Positions 28,991-45,887 of a stretch of 64,000 nucleotides of DNA are shown here, one piece after another. The first letter of the stretch is position 1, and each line of letters starts with the position of its first letter. The translations under genes were made by a program, and so were the position numbers. Below the pieces are notes generated by a model. That model was not told the origin of the DNA. It searched no databases and saw nothing but the letters and a program-made list of their open reading frames with translations. The stretch is from Steroidobacteraceae bacterium (lineage in GTDB: Bacteria > Pseudomonadota > Gammaproteobacteria > Steroidobacterales > Steroidobacteraceae): assembly GCA_035275585.1 (NCBI GenBank), contig DATEML010000013.1:47983-111982 (forward strand). The letters are read 5' to 3'.

Positions 28991-29115
28991 CCTCCCGATG
29001 CTCCCTGTCAGTTTCTTGTTCGAATGTTCACTTGGAGTGCTCTGGGGGACCCAACGCCGGCGGACGCCCCCGGTTCCTCGGCTATGATAATTCCTACCAC
29101 AAGGGGAGCATCCAG

Positions 29116-29922
29116 GTGAGCGAAAGCTTCGTGCACTACGCGGCCGCCGACGGCGTCGCGACCTTGACCCTGAGCCGCCCCGAGAGCCGCAATGCCATCG
29201 GGGCCCAGCAGGATTGCCTCGACGTCATCGACGCCGTCCGCCGGGCGGAAGACGACGCCGCCGTCAGCTGCATCATCCTGACGGGAGCCGGAGCGAGCTT
29301 CTGCGCCGGGGGAAACCTCAAGGGCATGCAGGCCCGCAGCGGTATCGGCCGCCTCGGCACGCCCGAAGCGACGCGTACCAACTATCGCCGCGGCGTCCAG
29401 CGCATGATCCGCGCCCTGTGGGACTGCGAGGTGCCGATGGTCGCCGCGGTCAATGGTCATGCGATCGGGCTCGGGCTCGACCTCGCGTGTATCTGCGACG
29501 TCCGCCTCGCAGCCGATACCGCGAAGTTCGCCTCCAGCTTCATCAAGGTCGGTATCGTGCCGGGCGACGGCGGGGCCTGGATTCTGGCGCGAGCCATCGG
29601 CCTGTCACGCGCGTCCGAGATGATCCTGACGGGCGACACGATCGACGCTCGCACGGCCGAGTCGATTGGACTGGTGTCGCGCGTCGTGCCCGGCGATCAG
29701 CTGCTGAACGAAGCACACACCGTTGCCCGCCGTATCGCCGTCAACCCGGCGAAGGCATTACGTCTTGCCAAGCGCCTGCTGCGTGAAGGCCAGCAGCAGC
29801 GGTTGAGCGACGTCCTGGAACTGTCGGCGGCATTCCAGGCGCTGGCGCACGAGACGAAAGATCACGAAGAAGCCGTCGCGGCCTTCCTCGAGAAGCGCGA
29901 GCCACGGTTTACAGGACAGTGA
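29116..29922 (+). CDS. Crotonase/enoyl-CoA hydratase
   Basis: LSRPESRNA, FCAGGNL, NGHAIGLG, VGIVPGDGG; GGGAG RBS + GTG. Confidence 0.9.
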   Translation: MSESFVHYAAADGVATLTLSRPESRNAIGAQQDCLDVIDAVRRAEDDAAVSCIILTGAGASFCAGGNLKGMQARSGIGRLGTPEATRTNYRRGVQRMIRALWDCEVPMVAAVNGHAIGLGLDLACICDVRLAADTAKFASSFIKVGIVPGDGGAWILARAIGLSRASEMILTGDTIDARTAESIGLVSRVVPGDQLLNEAHTVARRIAVNPAKALRLAKRLLREGQQQRLSDVLELSAAFQALAHETKDHEEAVAAFLEKREPRFTGQ

Positions 29923-29941
29923 GCCGCGCGCGGAGCGCACC

Positions 29942-31096
29942 GTGCACGCCTTCAGATTCGATCCAGTCACACTGCCGGCCGGCGCTGCTGCATTCCGCAA
30001 GGAGATTCGCGAGTTCCTCGCGCGCGAGCTGCCGAACGTGCCAGCGGAGCGTCGTGCCAACTGCTGGGCAGTGTTCGATGCGGAGTTCTCGCGCAAGCTC
30101 GGAGCGCGCGGCTGGATCGGCATGGTGTGGCCGAAGCAGTACGGCGGTCACGAGCGCAGCGCGCTCGAACGTTACATATTGCTCGAAGAGTTGCTCGCGG
30201 CCGGCGCACCGGTCGGCGCGCATTGGATCGCGGACCGCCAGTCGGGGCCGAACCTGCTGCGCTACGGCTCGGAGCAACAGCGCCGAAGCTATCTGCCCGG
30301 CATGGCGCGAGGCGAGATCCTCTGCTGCATCGGCATGTCCGAGCCCGGCGCGGGATCGGACCTCGCCGCCGTCCGGACGCGCGCCGAGAAACTGCCGGAC
30401 GGCCGCTGGCGCATCAACGGTCAGAAGATCTGGACGAGCAACGCGCAACACAGCCAGCTGATGATCGCGCTCGTGCGCACCGGCCCGCTCGACGAGAAGA
30501 ACCGGCACTCGGGCCTGAGCCAGTTCCTGCTGGAGCTGCGCACACCCGGCATCCGCATCCAGCCGATCGTCGACCTGGTCGGCCATCCCGGCTTCAACGA
30601 GGTGTTCTTCGACGACGTCGTAGTCGAGCCGCACTGCCTGCTCGGCGCCGAAGGCGAAGGGTGGCAGCAGGTGACGAGCGAACTGTCGCTCGAGCGCAGT
30701 GGTCCGGAACGCTACCTCTCCAGCTTTGCGCTGTTCCTCGAGCTCGTGCGCCTCGCCGGCCGCGTCGACTCCGAGGCGCTGCGACATGCAGTCGGCCGGC
30801 TCACCGCCGAGTTGTGGACGTTGCGACAGATGTCGCTCTCGGTCGCCGGCCAGCTCGCCGCCGGCGAGGATCCGATGCTCGCGGCCGCGATCGTCAAGGA
30901 TCTCGGCAATACGTTCGAGCAGGCGCTGCCCGCGCTCGTGCAGTCGCTCGTCGGTGAGGACATCCGGCTCGAAGACGACAGTGACCTCGCCCGGACACTC
31001 GCATTGCTGCTGCAAACGTCGCCATCATTCAGCCTGCGCGGCGGCACGCGCGAGATTCTTCGTGGCATCGTCGCACGCGGCCTGGGGTTGCGCTGA
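29942..31096 (+). CDS. Acyl-CoA dehydrogenase (catalytic-type subunit)
   Basis: GMSEPGAGSDLA, INGQKIWTS, FNEVFFDDV, LSLERSGPER, LRGGTREILRGIVA. Confidence 0.92.
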   Translation: MHAFRFDPVTLPAGAAAFRKEIREFLARELPNVPAERRANCWAVFDAEFSRKLGARGWIGMVWPKQYGGHERSALERYILLEELLAAGAPVGAHWIADRQSGPNLLRYGSEQQRRSYLPGMARGEILCCIGMSEPGAGSDLAAVRTRAEKLPDGRWRINGQKIWTSNAQHSQLMIALVRTGPLDEKNRHSGLSQFLLELRTPGIRIQPIVDLVGHPGFNEVFFDDVVVEPHCLLGAEGEGWQQVTSELSLERSGPERYLSSFALFLELVRLAGRVDSEALRHAVGRLTAELWTLRQMSLSVAGQLAAGEDPMLAAAIVKDLGNTFEQALPALVQSLVGEDIRLEDDSDLARTLALLLQTSPSFSLRGGTREILRGIVARGLGLR

Positions 31097-31097
31097 C

Positions 31098-32102
31098 ATG
31101 AGCGAGCAACGACAACTGCTCGCCGACAGCGCCGCACGCGCGTTCGCGTCGCACGACCGGCAGCGCAACTCCTGGCAAGCGCTCGAAGAGCTGGGTATCG
31201 CGGACATTCTCGTCGCCGAAACGAGCGGCGGAACCGGCGCGGACTGGGACGACGCGTGCGCCGTGCTGCAAGCGAGCGGACGCTGGCAGATTGCATTGCC
31301 GCTCGCCGAAGCGATGCTCGCGCGCAAACTTGCGGCCGATGCGGGTCTGGAGGTGCCGCCGTCGCCGATCAGCATCGCGCCGGACGCAACGGGCGTGCTC
31401 TCGCGAGATGGGCGTACGTGGAGATTCTCCGGCGTGCTGCCGAGCGTGCCCTGGGGACGCGACGTCGCCCACGTCGTCACGTCGCTGCGGTTCGAGGATC
31501 GTCCGCACACTGTCGTTCTGTCCGTTACGGATGCGAATCTGCACAAACGGACAAACCTTGCGGGCGAGCCGCGAGACGATCTGCGATTCGACGCCGTTCC
31601 GGCGCTCGCTGCACAAGCAACGTGCAGAGAGGCACAGCACCTCTTCTACTACGCGGCGCTCGCACGCACGGCGCAGATCGCCGGCGCGCTCGAATCGGCG
31701 CTCGAACGCTCGATCGCTTACGCCCTGGAGCGCAAACAGTTCGGCCGACCGATCGGACAGTTCCAGGCGGTGCAGCAGCAACTGGCGCTATTTGGAGCAG
31801 AAACGGCCGCGGCCCTCTGTGCCAGCCGCTCAGCGGCGATTGCTGCGACCGCGGGCGATGCCTCGTTGCAAATCGCCGCGGCCAAGCTGCGCGCAAACCA
31901 GGCTATCGGCGTTGCGACCGCAACCGCGCATCAGGTCCACGGCGCGATCGGCTTCACGTGGGAGTTTCCCCTGCGCCACGCGACGCAACGCTTGTGGTCA
32001 TGGCGCTCCGAGTACGGCAACGACCGCTTCTGGAGCGAGCAACTCGGTCGGACGGTCATCGCACGCGGCGCGGACACTTTCTGGACCGACCTGACACGAT
32101 AG
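31098..32102 (+). CDS. Acyl-CoA dehydrogenase, short partner-type subunit
   Basis: ERKQFGRPIGQFQAVQ and AHQVHGAIGFTWE; N-terminal domain reduced. Confidence 0.85.
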   Translation: MSEQRQLLADSAARAFASHDRQRNSWQALEELGIADILVAETSGGTGADWDDACAVLQASGRWQIALPLAEAMLARKLAADAGLEVPPSPISIAPDATGVLSRDGRTWRFSGVLPSVPWGRDVAHVVTSLRFEDRPHTVVLSVTDANLHKRTNLAGEPRDDLRFDAVPALAAQATCREAQHLFYYAALARTAQIAGALESALERSIAYALERKQFGRPIGQFQAVQQQLALFGAETAAALCASRSAAIAATAGDASLQIAAAKLRANQAIGVATATAHQVHGAIGFTWEFPLRHATQRLWSWRSEYGNDRFWSEQLGRTVIARGADTFWTDLTR

Positions 32103-32116
32103 GATTTTTCTGTGTT

Positions 32117-32194
32117 TCTTCGCCGCGTTTTCCTGTTCGTTCGTCGCGGACGCACGGACGCGCGGTCAGTTTCGCGCGAACGACAGCGCATAAT
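32117..32194 (+). promoter_or_regulatory. LytTR-type direct repeat and -10 upstream of the LytS/LytTR operon
   Basis: TCTTCGCCG-N12-CGTTCGTCG (32117-32146); CATAAT at 32189-32194. Confidence 0.5.
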
Positions 32195-32230
32195 CATATT
32201 CCCACACGGCATTACCTCAGGGCAGAGATC

Positions 32231-33361
32231 ATGACAGCGTATGAGGCGCCGCTCGGCGCAACCGTTCCTGCGTCCGATGCATCGAAATCAACACCGGGGA
32301 CCGGTGCAGCGACGCGGCGCACGATGATGCAGATCCACGTGTTCAGCGCGCTGTTCTGGGCAGCGATGTTCACGATGCACACAACACAGATGCTCCTGGC
32401 CAACAATCGCGAAGACTGGCATACGATCGGCTGGCGCGCGGCGATGAACGTGCTGGCATTCGTCCTGTGCATCCCACTGGGCAAGGTGATCGCCGGAACG
32501 CTCGAGCTGCGCCTGTCGCGGCGCATCGTTGCGATCGGCAGCGCAGCTCTGCTGATCGCCATCGTGTACGCTCTGGTCGGCTACTACGTCTGGACGATCG
32601 TGCTGGAAAATCCGCCGATGCCCTACTCCTGGCTCGCTGGCCTGATCATCCAGTCGCAATACAACTTCATTCTGTTTCTGCTGTGGTGTGCGTTCTGCTC
32701 GGCGATCCTCTACGCCATGCTGCTGCAGGAGCGCGAGCGCAGGCTGTTGCACGCACAGGTGCTGGCGCGTGAGGCCGAGCTGAAAATGCTCCGCTACCAG
32801 ATCAATCCGCACTTCCTCTTCAACACGCTCAATGCGGTCTCGGCACTGATCGTGACCGACCAGGCGCTCGCCGCCGACGCGATGATCAGCAAGCTGGCGC
32901 GCTTCTTCCGCAACGCTCTGAGCCGCGAGTCGACCGCAAAGGTCACGCTGGCGGAGGAGCTGCGCGTGCAGCTGGAGTATCTCACCATCGAGCTGACCCG
33001 CTTCCCCGAGCGCCTCAGCTGGTCGACGCACATCGAGCCGGGCCTGGACAACGCGCTCGTGCCGCATCTGATCCTGCAGCCGCTGGTCGAGAACGCAATC
33101 AAACACGGTGTCGCGCGCACTGCTGCGCCGGTGGAGCTGAAGCTCAGCGCGGCTCGACGCGGCGGCGAGCTGCTCGTGAGCGTGGAGAATGGAGTCGGAG
33201 TGAAGTCCGACCTCCAGCATCAGGCAGGCGAGCGCGTCGGGCTCGCGAATGTCGCGCGCCGTCTCGAGAACTTCTACGGACCGGCCGCCGGCCTATCGGC
33301 CGCGCAACGGGATGGACGGTTCACGGTCGATCTGCGCCTGCCGCTCGAATTGACCTTATGA
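32231..33361 (+). CDS. LytS/YehU-family sensor histidine kinase
   Basis: 4-5 TM; LRYQINPHFLFNTLNAVS; TLAEEL; ILQPLVENAIKHG; VGLANV. Confidence 0.93.
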   Translation: MTAYEAPLGATVPASDASKSTPGTGAATRRTMMQIHVFSALFWAAMFTMHTTQMLLANNREDWHTIGWRAAMNVLAFVLCIPLGKVIAGTLELRLSRRIVAIGSAALLIAIVYALVGYYVWTIVLENPPMPYSWLAGLIIQSQYNFILFLLWCAFCSAILYAMLLQERERRLLHAQVLAREAELKMLRYQINPHFLFNTLNAVSALIVTDQALAADAMISKLARFFRNALSRESTAKVTLAEELRVQLEYLTIELTRFPERLSWSTHIEPGLDNALVPHLILQPLVENAIKHGVARTAAPVELKLSAARRGGELLVSVENGVGVKSDLQHQAGERVGLANVARRLENFYGPAAGLSAAQRDGRFTVDLRLPLELTL

Positions 33362-34179
33362 CAGCATTGCGAGTGATCGCGATCGATGACGAGCCCCTGG
33401 CGTTGCGCCGCCTGGAATGGTGCCTGCAGGACGTTCCGGACGTCGCGCTGATCGGCAAGACCGGCAACCCGCAGCGCGGCCTCGAGCTGATCCGCAGCCT
33501 CGCGCCGGACGTCGTGCTGCTGGACGTCGAGATGCCCGAGTTGAGCGGCTTCGAGCTGATCGATCAGCTCGGGGCGCTCGGCGGGCCGGACGACGGAGCG
33601 ATGCCGGAAATCGTGTTCGTGACGGCGTTCGATCACTTCGCCGTCAAGGCATTCGCGGTCAGCGTCGTCGACTATCTGCTGAAGCCGGTCGAGCGCAGCC
33701 GGCTGATCGAAGCCCTCGAACGCGCCCGCGTGCGCCGCGAGCTGCGCGACGCGCACGCCCGCGTCCAGGAATTGCGCGAAATCATCGACAACCTGCGCAC
33801 CGACCGGCGCGGCGACGCCCAGAAGAAGTACGAAACCGAGCTGTGGATCCGCGAAGGCGATGCACGGGTGCGGGTGCCAGTCGAAATGATCGAGCGCCTG
33901 GAAGCCGACGGCGACTACGTCCGCCTGCACGTCGGCCAACGTGTCCGGCTGATGCGCGCACGTCTCGGCGATCTCGCCGAGCGGCTCGATCCTGCGAAGT
34001 TCGTGCGCGTGCATCGCTCGGAAATCGTGCGGCACGATCTGATCGCGGCGATCCGCCGTCACGAGTCCGGTCGCACGTTCGCGGTGTTGTCCGGCGGTCG
34101 GGAAGTTCCCGTCAGTCGCCGCTATGTCTCGCGCGTCGCGCACGCATTACGTTTTCGTAAGCAACAGCACAGCGCTTGA
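33358..34179 (+). CDS. LytTR family DNA-binding response regulator
   Basis: IDDEPLA, LDVEMP, FVTAFD, DYLLKP; LytTR domain EADGDYVRLH..FVRVHRSEIV..VSRRY. Confidence 0.95.
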   Translation: MTALRVIAIDDEPLALRRLEWCLQDVPDVALIGKTGNPQRGLELIRSLAPDVVLLDVEMPELSGFELIDQLGALGGPDDGAMPEIVFVTAFDHFAVKAFAVSVVDYLLKPVERSRLIEALERARVRRELRDAHARVQELREIIDNLRTDRRGDAQKKYETELWIREGDARVRVPVEMIERLEADGDYVRLHVGQRVRLMRARLGDLAERLDPAKFVRVHRSEIVRHDLIAAIRRHESGRTFAVLSGGREVPVSRRYVSRVAHALRFRKQQHSA

Positions 34180-34242
34180 GCCGAGAGCGCGCAGAGCGCG
34201 CGATTTCCCGTGTCTGCCGATGCATGCGTTGCTCGCCGCTAC

Positions 34243-34309
34243 CGTTGGTCGTCGCGGCACGGCGCTTCGACGCAAAACTCAGCGGAACAAATTGCACTCG
34301 CTCTAGCCT
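34243..34309 (+). promoter_or_regulatory. LytTR-type direct repeat and -10 for AraC copy 1
   Basis: CGTTGGTCG-tcgcggcacggc-GCTTCGACG, then TAGCCT 31 nt later. Confidence 0.55.
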
Positions 34310-34343
34310 ATTCCCCGTGTGATTTGGCAACGCGGGCTCGTCG

Positions 34344-35336
34344 ATGGGTTCAATCATCCGGCGCTTCGTTTCGAACGGTCTGAGTGTCAGCGCCCACACG
34401 GCGCAGGGAACCGAGATTCACTGGATGCCAGCGGGTCGCACCGCGCCGGAAGTCATCGCCGGCGTTCCATCCGTGCATGCGGCGTGGAATGGCAGCTACC
34501 CGCTATGCGTCGATGGCCGCGCGCTCAGGGTGGAAGAAGAAGTATTCCTCGTGCTCAATGCCGGTCACGTGCTCACGACGCAGGGCCGGCGCGACCCGGG
34601 CACATGCATGCTCAGCATCTACTTCGCGCCCGAACTGCTGGCGCAAGCCTGTAATGCACTCGCTCCCGCCGACCGCGAGCTGCTGATTGCGTGCTCGGAA
34701 GGCCGGGGATTGCGTCTTTTCGAGCATCTGCGCGAGTGCGACCGCTCGTTCGCCTCGGTCATGCACTACGTCGCACATCACATCTGCGCGGGCGTCGACG
34801 ACCCGCTGTGGTACGAGGAACAAGTGGGTTTCCTCCTGCGACGGCTCCTGACGCACGAGATCTCGCTCGCCCGCACAGTCAGCAACATGACGCACATGAG
34901 TTCGTGGAAGCGTCGCGAAACTTTCACGCGCCTGTCACGGGTCGCCGACCTGATCCATTCCGGTTATGACCGTCCGCTGACGATCGACGAGTTAGCCGAA
35001 GCGTCGCACTGGTCGCGTTTTCACATGATGCGCGAGTTCAAGGCGGTGCACGGCATCAGTCCGTACGAGTATCTGCAACGGCGTCGGACACAAACGGCCG
35101 CACGGCTGCTGTGCTCGACGGAATTGTCCGTCGCGCAAATCGTCGAGCGCACCGGTTTCCACGAACGCAGCACGCTGGTGCGTCGCTTGCGGCGCAGCCG
35201 CGGACTCGGCGCGCGTGCCCTGCGCACGCTCGCCCAGGAAGAAGGCACGCAATCATCGCAAGTGATGCCTCACAGAATGCCAACGGCTGCCGCATCCGGT
35301 GTGAATTCCACCACTAGCATCTCCTCACTGCGCTAA
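34344..35336 (+). CDS. AraC family transcriptional regulator, copy 1
   Basis: Double HTH: YDRPLTIDELAEASHWSRFHMMREFKAVHGISPYEYL..ERTGFHERSTLVR. Confidence 0.92.
   Translation: MGSIIRRFVSNGLSVSAHTAQGTEIHWMPAGRTAPEVIAGVPSVHAAWNGSYPLCVDGRALRVEEEVFLVLNAGHVLTTQGRRDPGTCMLSIYFAPELLAQACNALAPADRELLIACSEGRGLRLFEHLRECDRSFASVMHYVAHHICAGVDDPLWYEEQVGFLLRRLLTHEISLARTVSNMTHMSSWKRRETFTRLSRVADLIHSGYDRPLTIDELAEASHWSRFHMMREFKAVHGISPYEYLQRRRTQTAARLLCSTELSVAQIVERTGFHERSTLVRRLRRSRGLGARALRTLAQEEGTQSSQVMPHRMPTAAASGVNSTTSISSLR
35276..35320 (+). promoter_or_regulatory. Putative TBDR-1 promoter inside the AraC-1 3' tail
   Basis: AATGCCAACGGCTGCCGCATC..TAGCAT; the same 39-nt spacing is seen in copy 2. Confidence 0.45.
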
Positions 35337-35349
35337 AAGCGCACGAAAT

Positions 35350-35412
35350 GGGGACATTCCTCGTTCGGAAGTGACATCAGTCACTGTCCGACCGAGGAAT
35401 GTCCCCTTTTTT
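35350..35412 (+). terminator. Long hairpin plus U-tract in the TBDR-1 leader
   Basis: GGGGACATTCCTCG/CGAGGAATGTCCCC 14-bp stem, then TCGGA/TCCGA and AGTGAC/GTCACT, loop ATCA, followed by TTTTTT. Confidence 0.7.
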
Positions 35413-35434
35413 GTTCACGCAGGAGGGCTTCTCG

Positions 35435-38400
35435 ATGTCGACGAATCTTTTCATCCGGCGCGCGGTCCGCTGCGCGCTGTTTACCGGTGCAGCTACCGCG
35501 CTCACCGGCCTGTTGCCCGCACAGGCGCAACAGCAACAACAGGAGACCATCCAGGAAGTGGTCGTGACGGGCTCGCGCATAGCGCAACCGAACCTGACGA
35601 GCGTCAGTCCGGTGACCGCTATCAGCTCCGACCAGATCAAGATCGAAGGCGTGACACGCACCGAGGACCTGATCAACAACCTGCCGCAGGCGTTCGGAGA
35701 CTTCGGCGGCAATGTCTCCAACGGCGCGACCGGCGCCGCGACCGTGAACCTGCGCAATCTCGGCTCGCAGCGCACGCTGGTGCTGGTCAACAGCCGGCGA
35801 CTGATGCCTGGCGATCCGACGCAGAACGGCGCGGCCTCGCCCGATCTCAACCAGATTCCCGCGGCGCTGATCGAGCGCGTCGAAGTGCTGACGGGCGGCG
35901 CCTCGGCCGTGTACGGCGCCGACGCCGTGGCCGGCGTCGTCAACTTCATCATGAACGACAAGTTCGAGGGCGTGCGACTCGACACTCAGTACGGCTTCTA
36001 TCAGCACGACAACAACAGCGACATCGGCAACGTCGTGCGCGACTCCGGCTTCAACTCGCCCGATGGCAATACGCGCGACGGTTACAGCAAGGACTTCACG
36101 TTCCTCGCCGGCATCAACACCGAGGACGGGCGCGGCAATGCCACCGTCTACATCGGCTATCGCACGCTGAGCGCGGTTACGCAGAACAAGCGCGATTTCA
36201 GCGCGTGCGCACTCGCCTCGGGTGACACGTTCAGTTGCGGCGGCTCCGGCACGACGGCGCCGGCGCTGTTCCAGACCTACAATCCGAACGATCCGAACGA
36301 CCTGTCGCCGACCGGCGCGTTCACCGTGGGCAGCAACGGCGTGATCCGCGAATTCAACGACTCCACCGACCTGTTCAACTTCGCACCCCAGAACTATTAC
36401 CAGCGTCCGGACGAGCGCAAGACCGCGGGCCTGTTCGCGCACTACGACTTGAGCGACAAGGCAACCGTGTACACCGAGTTCATGTTCATGGACGATGACA
36501 CGCAGGCGCAGGTGGCGCCGAGCGGCGCGTTCCTCGGCTCCGGCCCCGGCCAGCCGCCGTTCTTCGGCCGCTACGCGGTGAACTGCAACAACCCGTTGCT
36601 CTCGCCCTCCGCCGTCGACACGTTCTGCGGCGGCAATGCCAATGCCGGCGACGTCCTGCTCGACATCGGCCGGCGCAATGTCGAAGGCGGCGGCCGCCTC
36701 GACGATCTGCGGCACACCTCGTTCCGCGGCGTCGTCGGCCTGAAAGGAGACATCGCCGAGGGCTGGAACTACGACGTCTACGGCTTGTACGGCACCTCGA
36801 TCCTGTCGGAGCGGTTCCAGAACGACATCTCGAGGACCCGGCTGAACAATGCGCTGCTCGCCGTGGCCGGCCCGAACGGCCAGCCCGTGTGCCGCATCAA
36901 CGCCGATGCCAATCCGACGAACGACGATCCCACCTGCGTACCGTACGCGATCTTCGGCGTCGGCAGCGTCACGCCGGATCAGCTCGCGTATCTGCAGGTG
37001 CCCGGCCTGACGGAAGGCGAGACGGTCGAGCAGATCCTGAGCGGCTCGATCTCCGGCGACCTCGGCCAGTACGGCCTCAAGTTGCCGACGGCGAACGACG
37101 GTCTCGCGATCGCGTTCGGCGCGGAGTACCGCTCGGAGCGCTCGGACCTGCGCGCCGACGAGGCCTTCCAGACGGGCGACCTCGCCGGCCAGGGCGCGCC
37201 GACGCTCGATACCACCGGCCAGTTCGACGTCAAGGAAGTGTTCGCCGAGGCGCGCCTGCCGCTGATTCAGGGCAAGCCGTTCGCCGACACGCTCTCGTTC
37301 GAAACCGGCTACCGCTACTCCGACTACGATCTCGGCTTCAAGACGGACACCTACAAGGCCGGCCTGCAATGGGCGCCGATCAGCGATGTGATGCTGCGCG
37401 GAAGTTATCAGCGAGCGGTGCGCTCGCCGAACATCCAGGAACTGTTCCTGCAACCGCGCGTGCAGCTCGACGGCAACACTGATCCGTGCTCGAACGCGCT
37501 CGGCGGGACGCCGGATGCCAGCTTCGAGGAATGCGCGAGAAGCGGCGTGACGGCTGCGCAGTACGGCAACATCCTGCAGAACCCGTCCGCGCAGTACAAC
37601 GGCCTGGTTGGCGGCAACACCAATCTCGATCCTGAAGAGTCGGATACGTACTCGTTCGGTCTCGTGCTGACGCCGGAATTCCTGCCGGGCTTCAGCTTCA
37701 CCGCCGACTACTACGACATCAAGGTGGACAAGCTCATCAACTCGCTGGGCGCGGACTTCATCCTCAACCAGTGCCTCACGACCGGCGATTCGACGTTCTG
37801 CGATCGCGTGCACCGCGCGGCCAACGGTTCGATCTGGCTCGGCAACACCGGGTTCATCGACGATCCGATCCTCAACACGGGCTCGCTGCAGACGAAGGGG
37901 GTCGATGCCGAGGTGGACTATCGCTTCCAGATGGGCAGAGTCGGCAGTCTCGGCGTGCAGCTCATCGGCACGTACGTCGACGAGTTCCTGACCGAGCCGC
38001 TGAAGGGGGCGAGCAAGTACGACTGCGTCGGACTGTACGGCACAGTCTGCGGCACGCCGATCCCGGATTGGCGGCACAGGATGCGCGCCACCTGGACAAC
38101 GCCGTGGAACATGGACCTGTCGCTGACGTGGCGCTATATCGCCGCCGTGGACGACGACCGCACCAGCTCGGACCCGAACCTGGCGGGCGACGTCATTCCG
38201 ACGGACAAGCGCCTCGGCTCGCGCAACTACTTCGATGTGAGCGGCTCGTACACGTTCGCCGACGTAGCCATGTTCAAGAGCGTGACTGGACGACTCGGCA
38301 TCAACAACCTGCTCGACAAGGATCCGCCGCTGGTTGGCCAGTCAACGTGTCCGGCCGTGTTCTGTAATGGCAACACGTTCCCGCAGGTGTACGACACGCT

Positions 38401-38440
38401 CGGACGGTTCGTCTTCATCGGGCTGACGGCGGACTTCTAG
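35435..38440 (+). CDS. TonB-dependent receptor, copy 1
   Basis: Signal peptide; EVVVTGSRI TonB-box region; LRNLGSQRTLVLVN; ERVEVLTGGASAVYGADAVAGVVNFI; C-terminal Phe. Confidence 0.95.
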   Translation: MSTNLFIRRAVRCALFTGAATALTGLLPAQAQQQQQETIQEVVVTGSRIAQPNLTSVSPVTAISSDQIKIEGVTRTEDLINNLPQAFGDFGGNVSNGATGAATVNLRNLGSQRTLVLVNSRRLMPGDPTQNGAASPDLNQIPAALIERVEVLTGGASAVYGADAVAGVVNFIMNDKFEGVRLDTQYGFYQHDNNSDIGNVVRDSGFNSPDGNTRDGYSKDFTFLAGINTEDGRGNATVYIGYRTLSAVTQNKRDFSACALASGDTFSCGGSGTTAPALFQTYNPNDPNDLSPTGAFTVGSNGVIREFNDSTDLFNFAPQNYYQRPDERKTAGLFAHYDLSDKATVYTEFMFMDDDTQAQVAPSGAFLGSGPGQPPFFGRYAVNCNNPLLSPSAVDTFCGGNANAGDVLLDIGRRNVEGGGRLDDLRHTSFRGVVGLKGDIAEGWNYDVYGLYGTSILSERFQNDISRTRLNNALLAVAGPNGQPVCRINADANPTNDDPTCVPYAIFGVGSVTPDQLAYLQVPGLTEGETVEQILSGSISGDLGQYGLKLPTANDGLAIAFGAEYRSERSDLRADEAFQTGDLAGQGAPTLDTTGQFDVKEVFAEARLPLIQGKPFADTLSFETGYRYSDYDLGFKTDTYKAGLQWAPISDVMLRGSYQRAVRSPNIQELFLQPRVQLDGNTDPCSNALGGTPDASFEECARSGVTAAQYGNILQNPSAQYNGLVGGNTNLDPEESDTYSFGLVLTPEFLPGFSFTADYYDIKVDKLINSLGADFILNQCLTTGDSTFCDRVHRAANGSIWLGNTGFIDDPILNTGSLQTKGVDAEVDYRFQMGRVGSLGVQLIGTYVDEFLTEPLKGASKYDCVGLYGTVCGTPIPDWRHRMRATWTTPWNMDLSLTWRYIAAVDDDRTSSDPNLAGDVIPTDKRLGSRNYFDVSGSYTFADVAMFKSVTGRLGINNLLDKDPPLVGQSTCPAVFCNGNTFPQVYDTLGRFVFIGLTADF

Positions 38441-38449
38441 AAAACATGA

Positions 38450-38467
38450 GTCAGGCTCGAAGCTGAC
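38450..38467. repeat. Degenerate REP-like palindrome
   Basis: GTCAGGC-TCGA-AGCTGAC. Confidence 0.4.
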
Positions 38468-38475
38468 ACATTCGG

Positions 38476-38507
38476 ACGGCGGGCTTCGGCCCGCCGTTCT
38501 TGTTTCT
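38476..38507 (+). terminator. Intrinsic terminator after TBDR-1
   Basis: ACGGCGGGC-TTCG-GCCCGCCGT then TCTTGTTT; stem identical to that after TBDR-2. Confidence 0.8.
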
Positions 38508-38552
38508 CTTTAAAACTGCGCGCTGCGCGATGCATGCGTTGCTCGCTTGTGT

Positions 38553-38619
38553 CGTTCACCGTCGCGGCACGGCGATTCATCGCAAAAAAATGCAGAGCCA
38601 TTCCTCGCCCGTTTAGCGT
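38553..38619 (+). promoter_or_regulatory. LytTR-type direct repeat and -10 for AraC copy 2
   Basis: CGTTCACCG-tcgcggcacggc-GATTCATCG, then TAGCGT 31 nt later. Confidence 0.55.
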
Positions 38620-38677
38620 AGGCCCCGTGGGAATGCAGCAACGCGCGAGCGGATGCTGCGACCGGGGAGGTTCGTCG

Positions 38678-39646
38678 ATGCGTTCGATCGTTCGCACCAA
38701 CGGATCGCATTCCGCGCAAGGCACCGAGATCCATTGGATGCCTGCGGGGCGCGCGGCGCCGGAAACTATCGCCGGCGTACCGTCCGTTCATGCTGCGTGG
38801 AATGGCAGCTACTCGCTGTGCGTCGACGGCCACGTCGCGCTCAAGCTCGAGGACGAAGTCTTCGTTGCGCTCAATGGCGGACACGTACTGACGTCGCGCG
38901 GCCGGCGCGATCCGGGCGCATGTCTACTGAGCGTCTATTTCGCACCGGACCTGCTGACGGAGGCGCTCGCAGCCCTGGCGCCGACGGATCGCGACCTGCT
39001 GATCTCGTGCTCGCAGGACAGGTCTTTCCGCCTGTTCGAGCACGCACGGGATAGCGACCGTTCGCTGGCCTCGGTGCTGCGCTACATCGCTCATCACGTC
39101 AGCGTCGGTATCGACGATCCGCAGTGGTATGAGGAGCAGGTGAGCTTCCTGCTGCGCCGGCTGCTCGGACACGAAGTGTCGCTGGCGCGGGGCGTCAGCA
39201 ACATGACCCACATGAAGTCGTGGAAGCGGCGCGAGACGTTCATGCGGCTCGCGCGCGTCACCGACCTGATCCACGCGTGCTACGAGCGTCCGCTGACGAT
39301 CGAAGAGCTGGCCGAAGCTGCTCACTGGTCGCGCTTTCACATGATGCGCGAGTTCAAGGCGGTGCACGGCATCAGCCCGTACGAATATCTGCAACGCCGC
39401 CGGACACAATCGGCCGTGCGCCTGCTGTGCTCCACTGACTTGTCGGTCGCTGAAATCGCAGAGCGCACCGGCTTCCACGTGCGCACGCTCGTACGTCGCT
39501 TGCGTCGCGACCGCGGGCTCGGCGCGCGCGCACTGCGCATGCTTGCGCAGGAAGAGACGCAATCACAGCAATCCGCGTCCGGCAAAATGACAACGAGTGT
39601 CGTATCGCGCGTTGACCGCGCAACTAGCATCTCCTGCGTTCGCTAA
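38678..39646 (+). CDS. AraC family transcriptional regulator, copy 2
   Basis: Paralog of 34344..35336; HWSRFHMMREFKAVHGISPYEYLQRRRTQ is identical. Confidence 0.92.
   Translation: MRSIVRTNGSHSAQGTEIHWMPAGRAAPETIAGVPSVHAAWNGSYSLCVDGHVALKLEDEVFVALNGGHVLTSRGRRDPGACLLSVYFAPDLLTEALAALAPTDRDLLISCSQDRSFRLFEHARDSDRSLASVLRYIAHHVSVGIDDPQWYEEQVSFLLRRLLGHEVSLARGVSNMTHMKSWKRRETFMRLARVTDLIHACYERPLTIEELAEAAHWSRFHMMREFKAVHGISPYEYLQRRRTQSAVRLLCSTDLSVAEIAERTGFHVRTLVRRLRRDRGLGARALRMLAQEETQSQQSASGKMTTSVVSRVDRATSISCVR
39586..39630 (+). promoter_or_regulatory. Putative TBDR-2 promoter inside the AraC-2 3' tail
   Basis: AATGACAACGAGTGTCGTATC..TAGCAT with 39-nt spacing. Confidence 0.45.
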
Positions 39647-39669
39647 ACCTTTTTCGCAGGAGGTGCGAG

Positions 39670-42600
39670 ATGTCGAAGAATAATTCCATTCGGCGCGCGG
39701 TTCGCTGCGCGCTGTTCACGAGTGCGGCCGCTGCGCTCGCCGCTGCAATGCCGGCGCAGGCGCAGGAGAGCTCGACCATTCAGGAGGTGGTCGTGACCGG
39801 CTCGCGCATTGCGCAACCCAATCTCACGAGCGTCAGCCCGGTGACGTCGGTGGGCTCCGACCAGGTCAAGATCGAGGGCGTGACGCGCGTCGAGGACCTG
39901 ATCAACAACCTGCCGCAGGCGTTCGCCGACTTCGGCGGCAACCTGTCGAACGGCTCGACCGGCGCGGCCACCGTCAATCTACGCAACCTCGGCTCGCAAC
40001 GCACGCTCGTGTTGGTCAACAGCCGCCGGCTGATGCCCGGCGATCCGACGCAGAACGGCGCGGCTTCGGCCGACCTGAACCAGATTCCGGCAGCACTGAT
40101 CGAGCGTGTCGAAGTGCTGACGGGCGGCGCGTCCGCCGTGTACGGCGCCGACGCGGTTGCCGGCGTCGTCAACTTCATCATGAACGACAAGTTCGAAGGC
40201 GTGCGGGTCGATGCGCAGTACAGCATGTACCAGCACAACAACGACGACGACGCGATCGCGAACATCGTGCGCGACAGCGGCTTCGGCCTGCCGGAGAGCA
40301 ACGTTCGCGACGGCTACACCAAGGACATTACGTTCATCGCCGGCATCAACACGCCGGACGGCCGCGGCAATGCCACGGTCTACATCGGCTATCGCACGCT
40401 CGATCCGATCACGCAGGACCGACGCGACTTCAGCGCGTGCGCGCTGGCGTCCTCCGACGCGGGCGATCCGACCTCCAATACGTTCGGCTGCGGCGGCTCG
40501 GGCACGACGGCGCGCGGGTTGTTCCAGACCTACAACCCGGCCGATCCGTTCGACTTCAGTCCCACGGGCACCTTCACCGTCGGCGAGGACGGCGCGATAC
40601 GCGACTTCCAGGGGTCCGACCTGTACAACTTCGCGCCGACCAACTACTACCAGCGCGCCGACGAGCGCAAGACTGCGGGCCTGTTCGCGCACTACGATTT
40701 CAGCGACAAGGCCAGCGTCTACACCGAGTTCATGTTCATGGACGATCGCACGCAGGCGCAGATCGCGCCGAGCGGCGCGTTCCTCGGCAGCGGACAGGGC
40801 CAGCCGCCGTTCTTCGGTCGCTATGCCGTGAACTGCGACAACCCGTTGCTCACGCCTTCGGCGCTGAGTACGTTCTGCGGCGGTGACGCGGGCGCGGGCG
40901 ATGTGTTGCTGGACATCGGCCGGCGCAACGTCGAAGGCGGCGGACGCAACGACGACCTGCGGCACACGTCGTTCCGAGGTGTCATCGGTCTGCGCGGCGA
41001 CATCGCCGAGGGCTGGAACTACGACGTGTATGGCCTGTACGGCACCTCGCTTCTGTCCGAAAACTTCCAGAATGATTTCTCGCGCTCGCGGCTGCGCAAG
41101 GCGCTGAACGCGGTCACCGGTCCGACCGGCCAGCCGGTTTGCCGTGTGAACGCCGATGCGGACCTGACGAACGACGATCCATCCTGCGTGCCGTACCAGA
41201 TCTTCGGTGTCGGCAGCGTCACGCCGGATCAGCTCGCGTACCTGCAGATCCCCGGCATCTCCAAGGGCGAGACGGTCGAGCAGATCCTGAGCGCGTCGGT
41301 GTCCGGCGATCTCGGCCAATACGGCTGGAAGCTGCCGAGCGCGAACACCGGTCTCGGCGTCGCGTTCGGCGCGGAGTACCGCTCCGAGAGCTCGGAGCTG
41401 CGCACCGATGCGGCCTACCAGAGCAACGACCTGGCCGGCCAGGGCGCGCCGACGCTCGACACTGTCGGTCAGTTCGACGTCAAGGAGCTGTTTGCCGAAG
41501 CGCGCTTGCCGCTCGTGCAGGGCAAGCCGTTTGCCGACACGTTGTCGTTCGAGGCGGGCTATCGCTACTCGGACTACGACCTCGGCTTCAACACGGACAG
41601 CTACAAGCTGGGCCTGCAGTGGGCACCGGTGAGCGACGTGATGTTACGCGGCAGTTATCAGCGCGCCGTGCGTTCGCCGAACATCCAGGAGCTGTTCCTG
41701 CAGCCGCGCGTGCAGCTCGACGGCGTAACCGATCCGTGCTCGAACGCGCTCGGGGAGACACCGGCTGCGAGCTTCGAGGAGTGCGCCCGCAGCGGCGTGA
41801 CGGCCGCGCAGTACGGCAACATCCTGCAAAACCCGGCCTCGCAGTACAACGGACTGGTCGGCGGCAATCCCGACATTCAGCCCGAGGAGTCGGATACGTA
41901 TTCGTACGGCTTCGTCGTGACGCCGGGCTTCCTGCCGGGCTTCAGCTTCACCGTCGACTATTACGACATCAAGGTCGAGAAGCTGATCAACTCGCTGGGC
42001 GCCGACTTCATCCTCAACCAGTGCCTGACGACGGCCGACCCGACGTACTGCGACCGCGTGCAGCGCGCGGGCAACGGCTCGATCTGGCTGGGCGATACCG
42101 GCTTCGTCGAGGATCCGATCCTCAACACGGGATCGCTGCAGATCACGGGCATCGATGCCGAGGCGAACTATCGCTTCGAGATGGGGAATGCGGGAAGCCT
42201 CGGCCTGCAGTTCATCGGCACTTATGTCGACGAATACATGACTGAGCCGCTGCCGGGGGCGAGCAAGTACGACTGTGCCGGACTGTTCGGCGCGGTATGC
42301 GGCACGCCGATCCCGGATTGGCGCCACAAGCTGCGCGCGAACTGGACGACGCCGTGGAACATGGACCTGTCGCTGACGTGGCGGTACATCGCCGCCGTGG
42401 ATGACGACCGCACCAGCTCGGATCCGAACCTGTCGGCGGCCATCATCGAGACGGACAAGCACCTCGGCTCGCGCAGCTACTTCGACCTGACCGGCTCCTA
42501 CACCTTCAGCGAAGTGGGCGTGTTCAGCAACCTCACCGGCCGCCTCGGCATCAACAACATCCTGGACAAGGATCCGCCGCTCGTCGGCCAGGACACCTGC

Positions 42601-42690
42601 CCGGCTGTGTTCTGCAACGGCAACACGTTCCCGCAGGTGTACGACACGCTCGGACGCTATGTCTTTGTCGGCCTGACAGCGGACTTCTAA
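39670..42690 (+). CDS. TonB-dependent receptor, copy 2
   Basis: GGAGG RBS; paralog of 35435..38440 over the full length; ends GLTADF. Confidence 0.95.
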   Translation: MSKNNSIRRAVRCALFTSAAAALAAAMPAQAQESSTIQEVVVTGSRIAQPNLTSVSPVTSVGSDQVKIEGVTRVEDLINNLPQAFADFGGNLSNGSTGAATVNLRNLGSQRTLVLVNSRRLMPGDPTQNGAASADLNQIPAALIERVEVLTGGASAVYGADAVAGVVNFIMNDKFEGVRVDAQYSMYQHNNDDDAIANIVRDSGFGLPESNVRDGYTKDITFIAGINTPDGRGNATVYIGYRTLDPITQDRRDFSACALASSDAGDPTSNTFGCGGSGTTARGLFQTYNPADPFDFSPTGTFTVGEDGAIRDFQGSDLYNFAPTNYYQRADERKTAGLFAHYDFSDKASVYTEFMFMDDRTQAQIAPSGAFLGSGQGQPPFFGRYAVNCDNPLLTPSALSTFCGGDAGAGDVLLDIGRRNVEGGGRNDDLRHTSFRGVIGLRGDIAEGWNYDVYGLYGTSLLSENFQNDFSRSRLRKALNAVTGPTGQPVCRVNADADLTNDDPSCVPYQIFGVGSVTPDQLAYLQIPGISKGETVEQILSASVSGDLGQYGWKLPSANTGLGVAFGAEYRSESSELRTDAAYQSNDLAGQGAPTLDTVGQFDVKELFAEARLPLVQGKPFADTLSFEAGYRYSDYDLGFNTDSYKLGLQWAPVSDVMLRGSYQRAVRSPNIQELFLQPRVQLDGVTDPCSNALGETPAASFEECARSGVTAAQYGNILQNPASQYNGLVGGNPDIQPEESDTYSYGFVVTPGFLPGFSFTVDYYDIKVEKLINSLGADFILNQCLTTADPTYCDRVQRAGNGSIWLGDTGFVEDPILNTGSLQITGIDAEANYRFEMGNAGSLGLQFIGTYVDEYMTEPLPGASKYDCAGLFGAVCGTPIPDWRHKLRANWTTPWNMDLSLTWRYIAAVDDDRTSSDPNLSAAIIETDKHLGSRSYFDLTGSYTFSEVGVFSNLTGRLGINNILDKDPPLVGQDTCPAVFCNGNTFPQVYDTLGRYVFVGLTADF

Positions 42691-42697
42691 GACGCAT

Positions 42698-42719
42698 GTA
42701 GGTCGGGCTTCGGCCCGGC
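42698..42719 (+). repeat. GTAG-type REP-like element
   Basis: GTAG-GTCGGGC-TTCG-GCCCGGC. Confidence 0.6.
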
Positions 42720-42727
42720 ATACCCTG

Positions 42728-42755
42728 ACGGCGGGCTTCGGCCCGCCGTTTTTTT
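42728..42755 (+). terminator. Intrinsic terminator after TBDR-2
   Basis: ACGGCGGGC-TTCG-GCCCGCCGT-TTTTTT. Confidence 0.88.
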
Positions 42756-43002
42756 ATCTGGCGGCTCGATACCGCACGATCTCCGCAAGCAACTCCGTCC
42801 GATCGAAATACACCGTCCACACCCAGCGCGGATTGTTCGCGAGCAGCTTGCGAAAGTACGCGAGCAGTTCGGCCTTGCCGCGCACGCCGGCCGGAATGCC
42901 GGGATCGATATACAACGCATCGTCGGAATAAAAAGCGGCCAGCCGTGCATCGAGTCCTCCTTCTACGACAGCCTGCAGGAATTCGCCCCGGCAGGGATCC
43001 AT
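42754..43002 (-). pseudogene. SnoaL/NTF2-like gene with an apparent internal deletion
   Basis: LAAFYSDDALYIDP..GKAELLAYFRKLLANNPRWVWT runs directly into VYFDRTELL; the central beta strands of the fold are absent. Confidence 0.6.
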
Positions 43003-43053
43003 TGTGGCCGATGGGGATTGAGTGAGGACACCCCGATCGAAAAGGAGAACCCC

Positions 43054-43434
43054 ATGCTCGGCAAACAAGACGCTGTCGCGACCGTCGCGGTCAAGAATCT
43101 TCCCGCGGCGAAGAAGTTCTATGAAGGCACGCTCGGCCTGAAGCCGATCGACGCCGAAGGCGACGAGGTCGTCGTGTACGAGAGCGGCAATTCGCGCCTC
43201 AACGTCTACCGCTCGCAATACGCGGGCACGAACAAGGCAACCGCCGTCACGTGGGCCGTGGACGACGTGGAAGGCGAAGTGAAAGCGCTGAAATCGAAGG
43301 GCGTCGCCTTCGAGCACTACGACATGCCGGGGATGAAGGTGCAGGGCGATCTGCACGTCGCCGACGGTCAGGACTTCAAGGTTGCCTGGTTCAAGGATCC
43401 GGACGGCAACATCTTCAGCCTCATCAACCGCTGA
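43054..43434 (+). CDS. VOC/glyoxalase family protein
   Basis: AKKFYEGTLGL, LKSKGVAFE, AWFKDPDGNI; AGGAG RBS. Confidence 0.92.
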   Translation: MLGKQDAVATVAVKNLPAAKKFYEGTLGLKPIDAEGDEVVVYESGNSRLNVYRSQYAGTNKATAVTWAVDDVEGEVKALKSKGVAFEHYDMPGMKVQGDLHVADGQDFKVAWFKDPDGNIFSLINR

Positions 43435-43448
43435 CTCGTTAGAGTCAG
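43431..43448. terminator. Short hairpin between convergent genes
   Basis: CTGACTC-GTTA-GAGTCAG. Confidence 0.45.
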
Positions 43449-44375
43449 CTAGCGAGCCGTCACCCGCTCCTGCGCGCGCGCGCCGCCGAGGATCATCTCG
43501 ATCGCGCGATTGCCCTCATGGCACGCGTACTCGAACATCTGATACTGGTCGTCGCGCGCCAGCGGGTACGCAATCTTCCACGGCGCCGTGTAGTTCGCCG
43601 GATCCTCGATGGTGATCTCGTACTGCATCGTGGCGCGATCGGTCGGCGTGAAACGCTCGACGATGTGCAACTGCTCGCTGTAAGGCGCGCCGCGCAGCGC
43701 AGCCGAATTCCCGCCCGTGGCAATCCAGCCGCGGGCGTTGAAGTTCGTGGTGTCGACGACGAGCGTCTTGCCTTCCCAGTGACCGCGTGAGTCGCCGCCC
43801 CACGAGCGCACGCGTGCGTCCGCGTGGCCGCCGCGACCGATCGGGATGATGCGCGCGTCGTGGATCATCTCGGTAACGATCAGCACGTAACCCGGCGTCT
43901 GCACGATCTGATACGCGTTGTTGTAGACGACCGGAAACATCGTGGTGGGCTCGCGCGTGATGCAGCGGTCCCACTGGCTCATGGTCTCGTACGAATCGAA
44001 GCTGGTCAGGTTGAAGTCGCGGCGCTTGAGCGCCTCCGGCCGAAACGGCACCTTGCCGTCGGCCGGCTCGACGACCAGCGAGGTCTGGCCGTTCGGCAGG
44101 ATCGCGAGGTGCTGGTCGATGAACGCGTCGTTGTCGCGCCCGACGTCGCCGGGCTTGTGGCCCGCCGCCCAGAATTTCTCGGCGGCGACGCGCTGCTGTT
44201 CGGACCGTTCGCCTTCGGGAAGCTGCGCTGGCCGCTCGAACGGAGTCAGGGTGCCGCTGGTCCAGATGCCCTGCAGATCGGGCGGTGACTCGGCTGCACA
44301 CGCGGCGCCACCCGCCAGCACTCCGGACACGATCCACGCCAATCGACGACTCGAGCGGTGACTGGGAGCGCGCAT
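43449..44375 (-). CDS. Secreted hypothetical protein of a recurring uncharacterised family
   Basis: Signal peptide; PDLQGIW, RCI, YNNAYQIVQTP, GDSRGHWEGKTLVVDTTNF, EYACHEGN. Confidence 0.8.
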   Translation of the reverse strand: MRAPSHRSSRRLAWIVSGVLAGGAACAAESPPDLQGIWTSGTLTPFERPAQLPEGERSEQQRVAAEKFWAAGHKPGDVGRDNDAFIDQHLAILPNGQTSLVVEPADGKVPFRPEALKRRDFNLTSFDSYETMSQWDRCITREPTTMFPVVYNNAYQIVQTPGYVLIVTEMIHDARIIPIGRGGHADARVRSWGGDSRGHWEGKTLVVDTTNFNARGWIATGGNSAALRGAPYSEQLHIVERFTPTDRATMQYEITIEDPANYTAPWKIAYPLARDDQYQMFEYACHEGNRAIEMILGGARAQERVTAR

Positions 44376-44433
44376 GGAGGCCGAGCATACTCGCGTAGCT
44401 CGGCCGCAGTCGATTGCCCTGATGGGCGGACGG

Positions 44434-45874: not shown

Positions 45875-45887
45875 GTTGAGAGAGGAA

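Follow-up and report, generated by a model that had tools for sequence, protein, structure and literature searches.

What controls a pair of large outer-membrane receptors in an uncultured soil bacterium is the question raised by a stretch of 64,000 nucleotides from a member of the Steroidobacteraceae (assembly GCA_035275585.1, contig DATEML010000013.1, positions 47,983 to 111,982), referred to here as the window. Many Proteobacteria of soil and rhizosphere take up their nutrients mainly through TonB-dependent receptors (TBDRs), and the signals that govern the large non-siderophore receptors are mostly obscure. Between 32.1 and 42.8 kb the window carries a cassette of six genes, all on the + strand and assigned by Pfam: a sensor kinase gene and a LytTR-family regulator gene (lytS and lytTR), followed by two units, each made of an AraC-family regulator gene and a TBDR gene (araC1-TBDR1 and araC2-TBDR2). 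An earlier interpretation of this DNA made from its letters alone (the sequence-only reading) noticed a pair of 9-bp direct repeats upstream of lytS and of each araC gene, and proposed a two-tier cascade in which the LytTR regulator switches on two ligand-sensing AraC proteins, each gating its own receptor. The footprint left by conservation among relatives, together with a position weight matrix (PWM) built without the window, establishes that the three sites are real: they are conserved in evolution, bipartite, built like LytTR-family sites and made of half-sites that resemble those of AlgR. The first tier, in which the LytTR regulator would act on lytS, araC1 and araC2, is well supported as a prediction from sequence.

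Three conserved bipartite elements, predicted to be operators

The elements lie upstream of lytS, araC1 and araC2, each as two half-sites separated by 11 nucleotides:

32116..32146, + strand: predicted bipartite LytTR-type operator of the lytS promoter, TTCTTCGCCG-N11-TCGTTCGTCG, present in 18/18 distinct orthologous promoters
34242..34272, + strand: predicted bipartite LytTR-type operator of the araC1 promoter, CCGTTGGTCG-N11-CGCTTCGACG, present in 23/24 orthologs, spacer variable
38552..38582, + strand: predicted bipartite LytTR-type operator of the araC2 promoter, TCGTTCACCG-N11-CGATTCATCG, present in 24/24 orthologs

Written as 9-mers, the pairs are TCTTCGCCG-N12-CGTTCGTCG at 32117, CGTTGGTCG-N12-GCTTCGACG at 34243 and CGTTCACCG-N12-GATTCATCG at 38553, exactly as the sequence-only reading had given them. 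The resemblance within each pair is modest, the two 9-mers agreeing at 6/9, 5/9 and 6/9 positions in sites 1, 2 and 3. In a window of 65% G+C, 9-mers at the same spacing reach at least 6/9 at 3% of positions and at least 5/9 at 11%, so that the self-similarity of the repeats alone is not beyond chance. For more than 100 nt the upstream regions of araC1 and araC2 are also paralogs of each other, so that sites 2 and 3 count as one observation. The window shows no enrichment of single AlgR-like 9-mers (3 against an expected 3.25), and the excess of the pattern TTSNNCG-N14-TTCNNCG (4 matches in the window against 0.68 expected) comes from a post hoc and circular choice of pattern. All of this would suit the view that weak self-repeats were picked by eye in GC-rich DNA and that two of the three descend from one duplication.

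What speaks against that view is the behaviour of the sites in 49 related loci of Steroidobacteraceae genomes and soil metagenomes, of which 14 come from GTDB genomes, 32 from JGI metagenomes and 3 were reached through LytTR homologs. Conservation in orthologs, which the sequence-only reading had named as a check, is almost complete: of the 66 distinct orthologous promoters, 65 have both half-sites in register, amid flanks and spacers that have diverged. The pooled half-site is the 10-bp sequence YCRTTCRNCG, with half-site starts always 21 bp apart, and the spacer of 12 bp between 9-mers (11 bp between 10-mers) is invariant; the predicted operator can thus be defined as YCRTTCRNCG-N11-YNRTTCRNCG. 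Information content in the half-site cores amounts to 1.65-1.93 bits per position, compared with 0.72 in the araC1 spacer, 1.23 in the araC2 spacer and 0.33 in the upstream flank of the lytS site. The araC spacers change freely in sequence and keep a constant length, the signature of a bipartite protein-binding site. The lytS operator, with the ortholog consensus TCATYCRTCG-CGTTTTCNTGT-TSRTTCRTCG, is different in this respect: its spacer CGTTTTCNTGT (32126-32136), which contains a T-tract, is conserved as strongly as the half-sites, unlike the spacers of the araC operators. When promoters were scored on 12 criteria, the real ones reached 12 in 46 cases, 11 in 17 and 10 in 3, while shuffled promoters mostly reached 8-9, with 11 in 12 of 1,320 shuffles and 12 in none.

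A PWM trained on the orthologs only, with the window sequences excluded, recovers all three sites. Among 128,000 positions, the sites at 38552, 32116 and 34242 rank first (27.0 bits), second (21.4) and fifth (15.9), the top score per random window (n = 20) lying between 10 and 18 bits. Across 420 kb of related loci, both strands included, a threshold of 18 bits gives 81 matches at the three promoter classes and 2 elsewhere, and in the loci retrieved through LytTR the matches are located solely at lytS and araC promoters. The lytS promoters are not paralogous to the araC promoters, yet carry the same motif. Footprint, window-free PWM and specificity within 420 kb have already refuted the explanation by chance and paralogy, to which we assign practically no probability, and the repeat observation is confirmed on better grounds than those of the sequence-only reading.

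Two further positions of the window score highly with the PWM, both on the - strand. One (20.1 bits, 55867-55897) lies in a coding sequence of the tryptophan-halogenase family and has an araC-like spacer, CATCCAGGTGA; the other (17.9 bits, 53989-54019) lies in the coding sequence of a major facilitator superfamily (MFS) transporter. Both were considered as operators and set aside as intragenic and probably due to chance. Apart from the three predicted operators, no intergenic PWM matches occur in the 64-kb window.

Which protein binds the repeats

The DNA sites of LytTR regulators consist of two imperfect direct repeats, each 8-13 bp long and about 12 bp from the other, the spacing being critical (PMC4064291). 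AgrA binds in dimeric form, and the repeat nearer to the promoter has its centre at about -60 (PMC4227749). Sites protected by AlgR include CCGTTCGTC, CCGTTCATC (czcR) and CCGTTGGTC (mucR) (PMC4787818). The premise of the sequence-only reading, namely that LytTR proteins recognise 9-bp repeats spaced by 12 bp and that AlgR has a site of this type, agrees with this published work (PMC4064291; PMC4787818). In the window, the distal (first) half-site of the araC1 operator contains CCGTTGGTC, the mucR site of AlgR, and the same half-site position in orthologs reads CCGTTCGTC in 9/24 and CCGTTCATC in 2/24; the proximal half-site of the lytS operator is TCGTTCGTC. An operator precedes lytS-lytTR itself in 18/18 orthologs, which is what would be expected of an autoregulated two-component system. 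Since the operator stands before the regulator's own operon, since its half-sites are exact LytTR-family sequences and since the motif occurs almost nowhere else, the adjacent LytTR regulator is the likeliest binder, and we regard its binding to the repeats as likely.

The main competitor for the sites is the AraC protein itself. AraC-family dimers also recognise direct repeats with a 21-bp periodicity, as in the I1-I2 sites of AraC and the sites of XylS and RhaS; in the AraC/XylS family, a dimer occupies a pair of direct half-sites, spaced by about 21 bp, beside the -35 region. The repeats could thus be sites of the AraC paralogs, which would autoregulate araC1 and araC2 and control lytS-lytTR, with the two-component system acting downstream or in parallel. 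The near-identical helix-turn-helix (HTH) helices of AraC1 and AraC2 would be expected to share sites, as is seen, and AraC and LytTR co-occur in all loci, so that genomics is unable to separate them. However, the half-sites match experimentally defined AlgR/LytTR 9-mers exactly, and the canonical LytTR layout is just such a repeat of 9/10 bp with a spacer of 12/11 bp, AraC half-sites usually being about 17 bp long. Two-component autoregulation is the simplest explanation for a site in front of the regulator's own operon, and a separate conserved box, unique to the araC promoters and described below, is open to AraC. On balance, we consider it unlikely that AraC is the binder of the repeats.

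The repeats might instead be recognised by an unlinked factor, such as a global regulator or a nucleoid protein, or be a structural feature of the promoters, with LytTR acting elsewhere. The conserved T-tract in the lytS spacer, which could be a bending or UP-like element, would fit such a role. The motif, however, is almost confined to three promoter classes within 420 kb of related DNA, fits the known specificity of the LytTR family, and has only intragenic high-scoring counterparts in the window. This possibility appears to us quite improbable, and binding by the adjacent LytTR regulator is retained as the preferred assignment.

Promoter geometry

Each operator is followed at a fixed distance by a box resembling a -10 element:

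32189..32194, + strand: -10-like box CATAAT of the lytS promoter, GCATAAT being nearly invariant among orthologs
34304..34309, + strand: -10-like box TAGCCT of the araC1 promoter, supported by ortholog alignment
38614..38619, + strand: -10-like box TAGCGT of the araC2 promoter, within conserved TTTAGCGT

The distances given by the sequence-only reading, 31 nt from the repeats to TAGCCT or TAGCGT and 42 nt to CATAAT, are correct in the window. Among orthologs, the distance from operator to box is 41-43 nt at lytS (17/18), 31 nt at araC1 (21/22) and 30-31 nt at araC2 wherever the extracted stretch extends that far, so that throughout the clade the lytS and araC promoters differ in this distance by about one helical turn, as had also been noticed from the sequence alone. 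No conserved -35 element was found at the operator promoters, and a scan of 31900-43000 for sigma-70 consensus promoters gave no matches. The combination of -10-like boxes at a fixed distance and no sigma-70 consensus fits promoters that depend on an activator. With the -10 boxes as predicted, the centres of the half-sites would lie near -59 and -80 at lytS and near -48 and -69 at the araC genes. A sigma-54 interpretation of the shared spacer GGCACGGCGCTTCG was rejected, as the sequence lacks the GC of a -12 element and orthologs do not conserve the spacer.

A second conserved box in the araC promoters

The araC promoters share a further element just upstream of the operator:

34219..34235, + strand: 17-bp box GATGCATGCGTTGCTCG (consensus GANGCATSCRTTGCTCG) upstream of the araC1 operator, defined by ortholog conservation
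38529..38545, + strand: the same 17-bp box, GATGCATGCGTTGCTCG, in a second copy before the araC2 operator, defined by ortholog conservation

The box starts 16 nt (start to start) upstream of the distal half-site and is nearly invariant. Within the main clade every araC1 and araC2 promoter has it (58 matches, none elsewhere in about 440 kb), and lytS promoters lack it. In the two most divergent loci, L012 (about 9825-9855) and L014 (about 172-202), it is replaced by a second repeat pair of lytS type, 41 nt upstream. Candidate roles are an autoregulatory site for AraC or an extra contact for LytTR. A short GC palindrome, GCGCGC-AGA-GCGCGC, stands 3' of lytTR in some orthologs (34180-34215 in the window). 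In others the stop codon of lytTR abuts the box, so that read-through from lytS-lytTR into araC1 would be possible.

Gene content and the duplicated araC-receptor unit

The genes of the cassette and the terminators behind the two receptor genes are as follows:

32231..33361, + strand: sensor histidine kinase, 376 aa (Pfam, hydropathy; start codon backed by ortholog alignment)
33358..34179, + strand: LytTR-family response regulator, 273 aa, with Response_reg and LytTR domains (Pfam); its start overlaps the kinase stop (ATGA)
34344..35336, + strand: AraC-family regulator 1, 330 aa, with C-terminal HTH_18/HTH_AraC and a divergent AraC_binding-like N-terminal domain (Pfam, homologs)
35435..38440, + strand: TBDR1, 1001 aa, with signal peptide, Plug and beta-barrel (Pfam, ortholog alignment)
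38474..38509, + strand: intrinsic terminator 3' of TBDR1
38678..39646, + strand: AraC-family regulator 2, 322 aa (Pfam)
39670..42690, + strand: TBDR2, 1006 aa (Pfam), starting 23 nt past araC2
42727..42757, + strand: intrinsic terminator 3' of TBDR2, with the same stem as that of TBDR1

The kinase combines a His_kinase domain (PF06580, E = 1.3e-23) with HATPase_c (E = 3.8e-6) and has about four N-terminal hydrophobic membrane helices and, by hydropathy, no periplasmic domain; Pfam finds neither a 5TM-5TMR_LYT nor a GAF sensor domain in it. As the 5TM-LYT domain is absent and the protein has only 376 aa and about four helices, 'LytS' is a loose label for what is an AlgZ/FimS-like layout. The best NCBIfam match of the LytTR regulator is BtsR, at 148 bits and thus below the cut-off of 246, and a PDB sequence search for a structure of its LytTR domain returned matches that cover the receiver domain only. 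These gene assignments of the sequence-only reading are upheld by Pfam, with the exception of the start of TBDR1, which the list of open reading frames gives as ATG 35399. That codon falls in the descending arm of a hairpin described below, while ortholog alignment and a conserved ribosome-binding site, GCAGGAGG, place the start at ATG 35435.

AraC1 and AraC2 are 70% identical, with near-identical HTH helices, and TBDR1 and TBDR2 are 81% identical. Both receptor genes are followed by the same terminator stem, GACGGCGGGC-TTCG-GCCCGCCGT (38474-38499 and 42727-42750). Because the upstream regions and the terminator stems are paralogous as well, the duplicated unit spans promoter, araC, TBDR and terminator, and judged by these paralogies it is a tandem duplication. 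The order acyl-CoA dehydrogenases-lytS-lytTR-araC-TBDR(-araC-TBDR) is kept in every related locus with sufficient flanking DNA and is the same whether loci are retrieved through AraC or through LytTR, an araC gene being found downstream of lytTR in 3/3 contexts reached through the LytTR protein. A single araC-TBDR unit is present in loci L008 and L012. The LytTR homologs listed by the protein search all belong to the same clade (at least 67% identity), and AraC proteins of this type form a small clade, its roughly 190 sequence clusters coming almost without exception from this lineage; by these measures the cassette is clade-specific to the Steroidobacteraceae. Two loci deviate. In L047 (8001-10300), lytS-lytTR-araC and both operators are present and the receptor gene is absent, and in L001 most of TBDR1 is missing, through either a deletion or an assembly collapse of the 80%-identical paralogs.

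From AraC to the receptors

The second tier of the cascade is another matter. That each AraC protein gates its own transporter, and that the two tiers thereby form an AND gate, cannot be read from the cis-elements, no intergenic TBDR promoter being present; an AND gate is possible. The araC2-TBDR2 gap measures 21-23 nt in most orthologs (23 in the window) and has room for a ribosome-binding site only, and the araC1-TBDR1 gap is filled by a hairpin, which leaves no room for a separate intergenic AraC-dependent promoter of either receptor.

The C-terminal double HTH of the AraC proteins is recognised by Pfam (HTH_18/HTH_AraC) and by PDB profile matches to MarA, Rob and AdpA. Their N-terminal domains give no Pfam match in either window protein even at E = 10, and the AlphaFold2 (AF2) model of AraC1 (predicted local distance difference test, pLDDT, 54, and below 30 over residues 1-103) is too poor for a fold search. 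A 61%-identical homolog (P0246), however, scores 25.3 bits with the AraC_binding family PF02311, above the cut-off of 21.1, and more distant homologs of full length (30-39% identity) have faint matches to the same domain families. The sequence-only description of these proteins as ligand-sensing gains indirect support from these homologs and finds no direct match in the window proteins themselves; a ligand-binding N-terminal domain is plausible.

The receptors possess a signal peptide, a Plug domain and a 22-strand barrel domain (Pfam, hydropathy). They have no N-terminal signalling (STN) extension, the mature N-terminus running directly into the TonB box, and the cassette contains no sigma or anti-sigma genes. 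NCBIfam and PDB searches for a clue to the substrate gave only generic plug-domain similarity and no recognised siderophore subfamily.

The most prominent feature between an araC gene and its receptor gene is a predicted RNA structure:

35350..35415, + strand: long stem-loop (35350-35406) and U-tract (35407-35415) in the araC1-TBDR1 gap (folding, orthologs)

The stem-loop has a folding energy of -55.2 kcal/mol (z = -8.7) and is followed by TTTTTTGTT. Its structure is kept in orthologs, in which the inner stem varies in sequence and length and the araC1-TBDR1 gap ranges from 31 to 118 nt; the basal stem shows at least one compensatory change, U-A in the window and G-C in locus L010. Placed right before the ribosome-binding site of the receptor gene, the hairpin looks like an intrinsic terminator or an attenuator. 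It is not repeated in the window, so it was discarded as a dispersed element of the repetitive extragenic palindromic (REP) type, and an Rfam search over the whole cassette found nothing near gathering scores. At the second junction, the 3' end of araC2, CATCTCCTGCG, is predicted to be able to pair with the Shine-Dalgarno sequence of TBDR2, CGCAGGAGGTG. The last 90 nt or so of both araC genes are conserved at the DNA level (35245-35336 and 39560-39646; e.g., ACAGAATGNCAACG and ACTAGCATCTCC), and in several orthologs, including L010, L001 and L004, the araC2 frame ends earlier and the DNA beyond it is still conserved.

The exact window sequence occurs in DNA metagenomes only. Contigs from soil metatranscriptomes that belong to relatives (88-95% identity) cover the 3' part of araC and the 5' part of the receptor gene, and one of them spans the junction, joining 35358 to 35404, as expected of a relative with a shorter hairpin. 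These contigs are compatible with co-transcription and carry little weight, being short, undirected and possibly including DNA.

Proposed mechanism

For the binders, the sign of regulation, the operon structure and the role of AraC, we infer the following arrangement. The membrane-embedded kinase would phosphorylate the LytTR regulator, a dimer of which would bind each operator upstream of weak, activator-requiring promoters. LytTR would thereby autoregulate lytS-lytTR and activate araC1 and araC2, where the operator lies one helical turn closer. In the simplest wiring, the LytTR-dependent promoter would drive araC and then the receptor gene by read-through or translational coupling. TBDR2 is probably co-transcribed and translationally coupled with araC2, while TBDR1, behind its conserved hairpin and U-tract, would need read-through or regulation. 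The AraC proteins, with a putative cupin-like N-terminal domain, probably add a ligand-dependent layer of feedback to these units, for which the 17-bp box, confined to araC promoters, is a possible site of action. As a whole, this model, with the kinase and LytTR acting through the operators on lytS, araC1 and araC2 and with araC-TBDR units as its output, seems to us moderately probable.

Several observations weigh against it. Direct repeats with a 21-bp period are also used by AraC-family dimers, and co-occurrence cannot tell which protein is the binder, since LytTR and AraC are always together in these loci. The conserved lytS spacer CGTTTTCNTGT is unexplained by a simple model of two half-sites. 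The role of the 17-bp box as an AraC site is weakened by its replacement with a LytTR-like pair in L012 and L014, which suggests that the box may be derived from a LytTR site. Nor does a simple operon sit easily with the strong, terminator-like hairpin that separates araC1 from TBDR1.

A more elaborate version would turn the cassette into an AND gate with three checkpoints, in which the kinase reads the envelope or periplasm, a cupin-type AraC protein reads the imported ligand and RNA elements set receptor output, these being the hairpin before TBDR1 and the pairing of the araC2 3' end with the Shine-Dalgarno sequence before TBDR2. An AND gate of LytTR, AraC and attenuator would, if true, be undescribed for TonB-dependent uptake; we hold this version to be doubtful.

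Comparison with known systems

A close likeness of the two-component part is with AlgZ(FimS)/AlgR of Pseudomonas aeruginosa, in which a small PF06580 membrane kinase with about four helices and no periplasmic domain is likewise paired with a LytTR partner. AlgR also uses the same 9-mers, CCGTTCGTC, CCGTTCATC and CCGTTGGTC (PMC4064291; PMC4787818), the comparison resting on sites and layout. AlgR moreover feeds into regulators of iron uptake (pvdS, pyoverdine), and so offers a parallel for a LytTR regulator that acts on a second regulator controlling a receptor pathway (PMC5790918). However, AlgR sites are mostly single and scattered, whereas those of the Steroidobacteraceae cassette are strict pairs, and AlgR is a global regulator, whereas the cassette system looks local, with three promoters. 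A proteobacterial LytTR protein with strictly paired sites could help to explain why AlgR-type half-sites occur both singly and in pairs.

With the operators of AgrA, ComE and PlnC the cassette shares two imperfect direct repeats about 12 bp apart. There the spacing is critical, a dimer binds upstream of weak promoters and the regulator controls its own operon, as is proposed for the cassette. Those systems serve peptide quorum sensing in Gram-positive bacteria and have AT-rich repeats, in contrast to the gammaproteobacterial host, the GC-rich AlgR-like half-sites and the regulator and receptor targets found here. The BtsS and YpdA kinases of Escherichia coli carry 5TM-LYT and GAF sensor domains and directly control inner-membrane transporters. 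In the cassette, by contrast, the kinase is without 5TM-LYT or GAF domains and the target unit is an AraC regulator with an outer-membrane receptor. What BtsS/BtsR and YpdA/YpdB have in common with the cassette as modelled here is a LytS/LytTR system whose main output is a transporter gene with a direct-repeat operator (for YpdB, PMC4847170).

As for the receptors, the sequence-only reading named Fur, LacI and ECF (extracytoplasmic function)/anti-sigma systems as their usual controllers, a list that is incomplete in omitting positive control by two-component systems (PfeS/R, PirS/R) or by AraC-type regulators such as PchR (PMC10654771). In PchR-FptA and YbtA-Psn/FyuA, as proposed here, a neighbouring ligand-sensing AraC protein positively regulates the receptor gene, and in PfeS/PfeR-PfeA and PirS/PirR-PirA a two-component system does so. 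Each of these cases, however, uses one mechanism, and their two-component regulators are of the OmpR type, whereas the cassette combines a LytTR system with AraC and has receptors of about 1000 aa; a Fur box was not seen in it, no search having been aimed at one. In the hybrid two-component systems (HTCS) of Bacteroidetes, a phosphorelay with an AraC-type HTH output controls SusC-like TonB-dependent receptors, and an HTCS AraC domain is among the PDB matches of a window AraC protein. HTCS regulators differ in that one polypeptide fuses all functions, senses sugars in the periplasm and lacks a LytTR domain, compared with the three separate proteins and the LytTR operator of the cassette.

In a full-text literature search, no paper came up in which a LytTR system is joined with AraC and a TonB-dependent receptor. 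Each part is known, from LytTR operators to receptors under AraC and two-component control, and only the combination is new, in one soil lineage; the principle itself is not. How regulation is wired in this uncultured, widespread soil lineage nevertheless becomes predictable from sequence with unusual precision, the prediction comprising an operator and its three target promoters, a further candidate operator and a hairpin in the RNA, with one regulator and two AraC proteins.

Genomic setting

The flanking genes have no obvious functional link with the receptors. The conserved upstream flank (28879-32102) contains an enoyl-CoA hydratase gene and two acyl-CoA dehydrogenase genes. The conserved downstream flank (42754-48633) contains a SnoaL-like gene, two overlapping open reading frames without a Pfam match (43449-44864 on the - strand and 44374-45846 on the + strand) and a GH97 glycosidase gene. 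The metagenomes in which the exact window sequence was found come from soil and rhizosphere.

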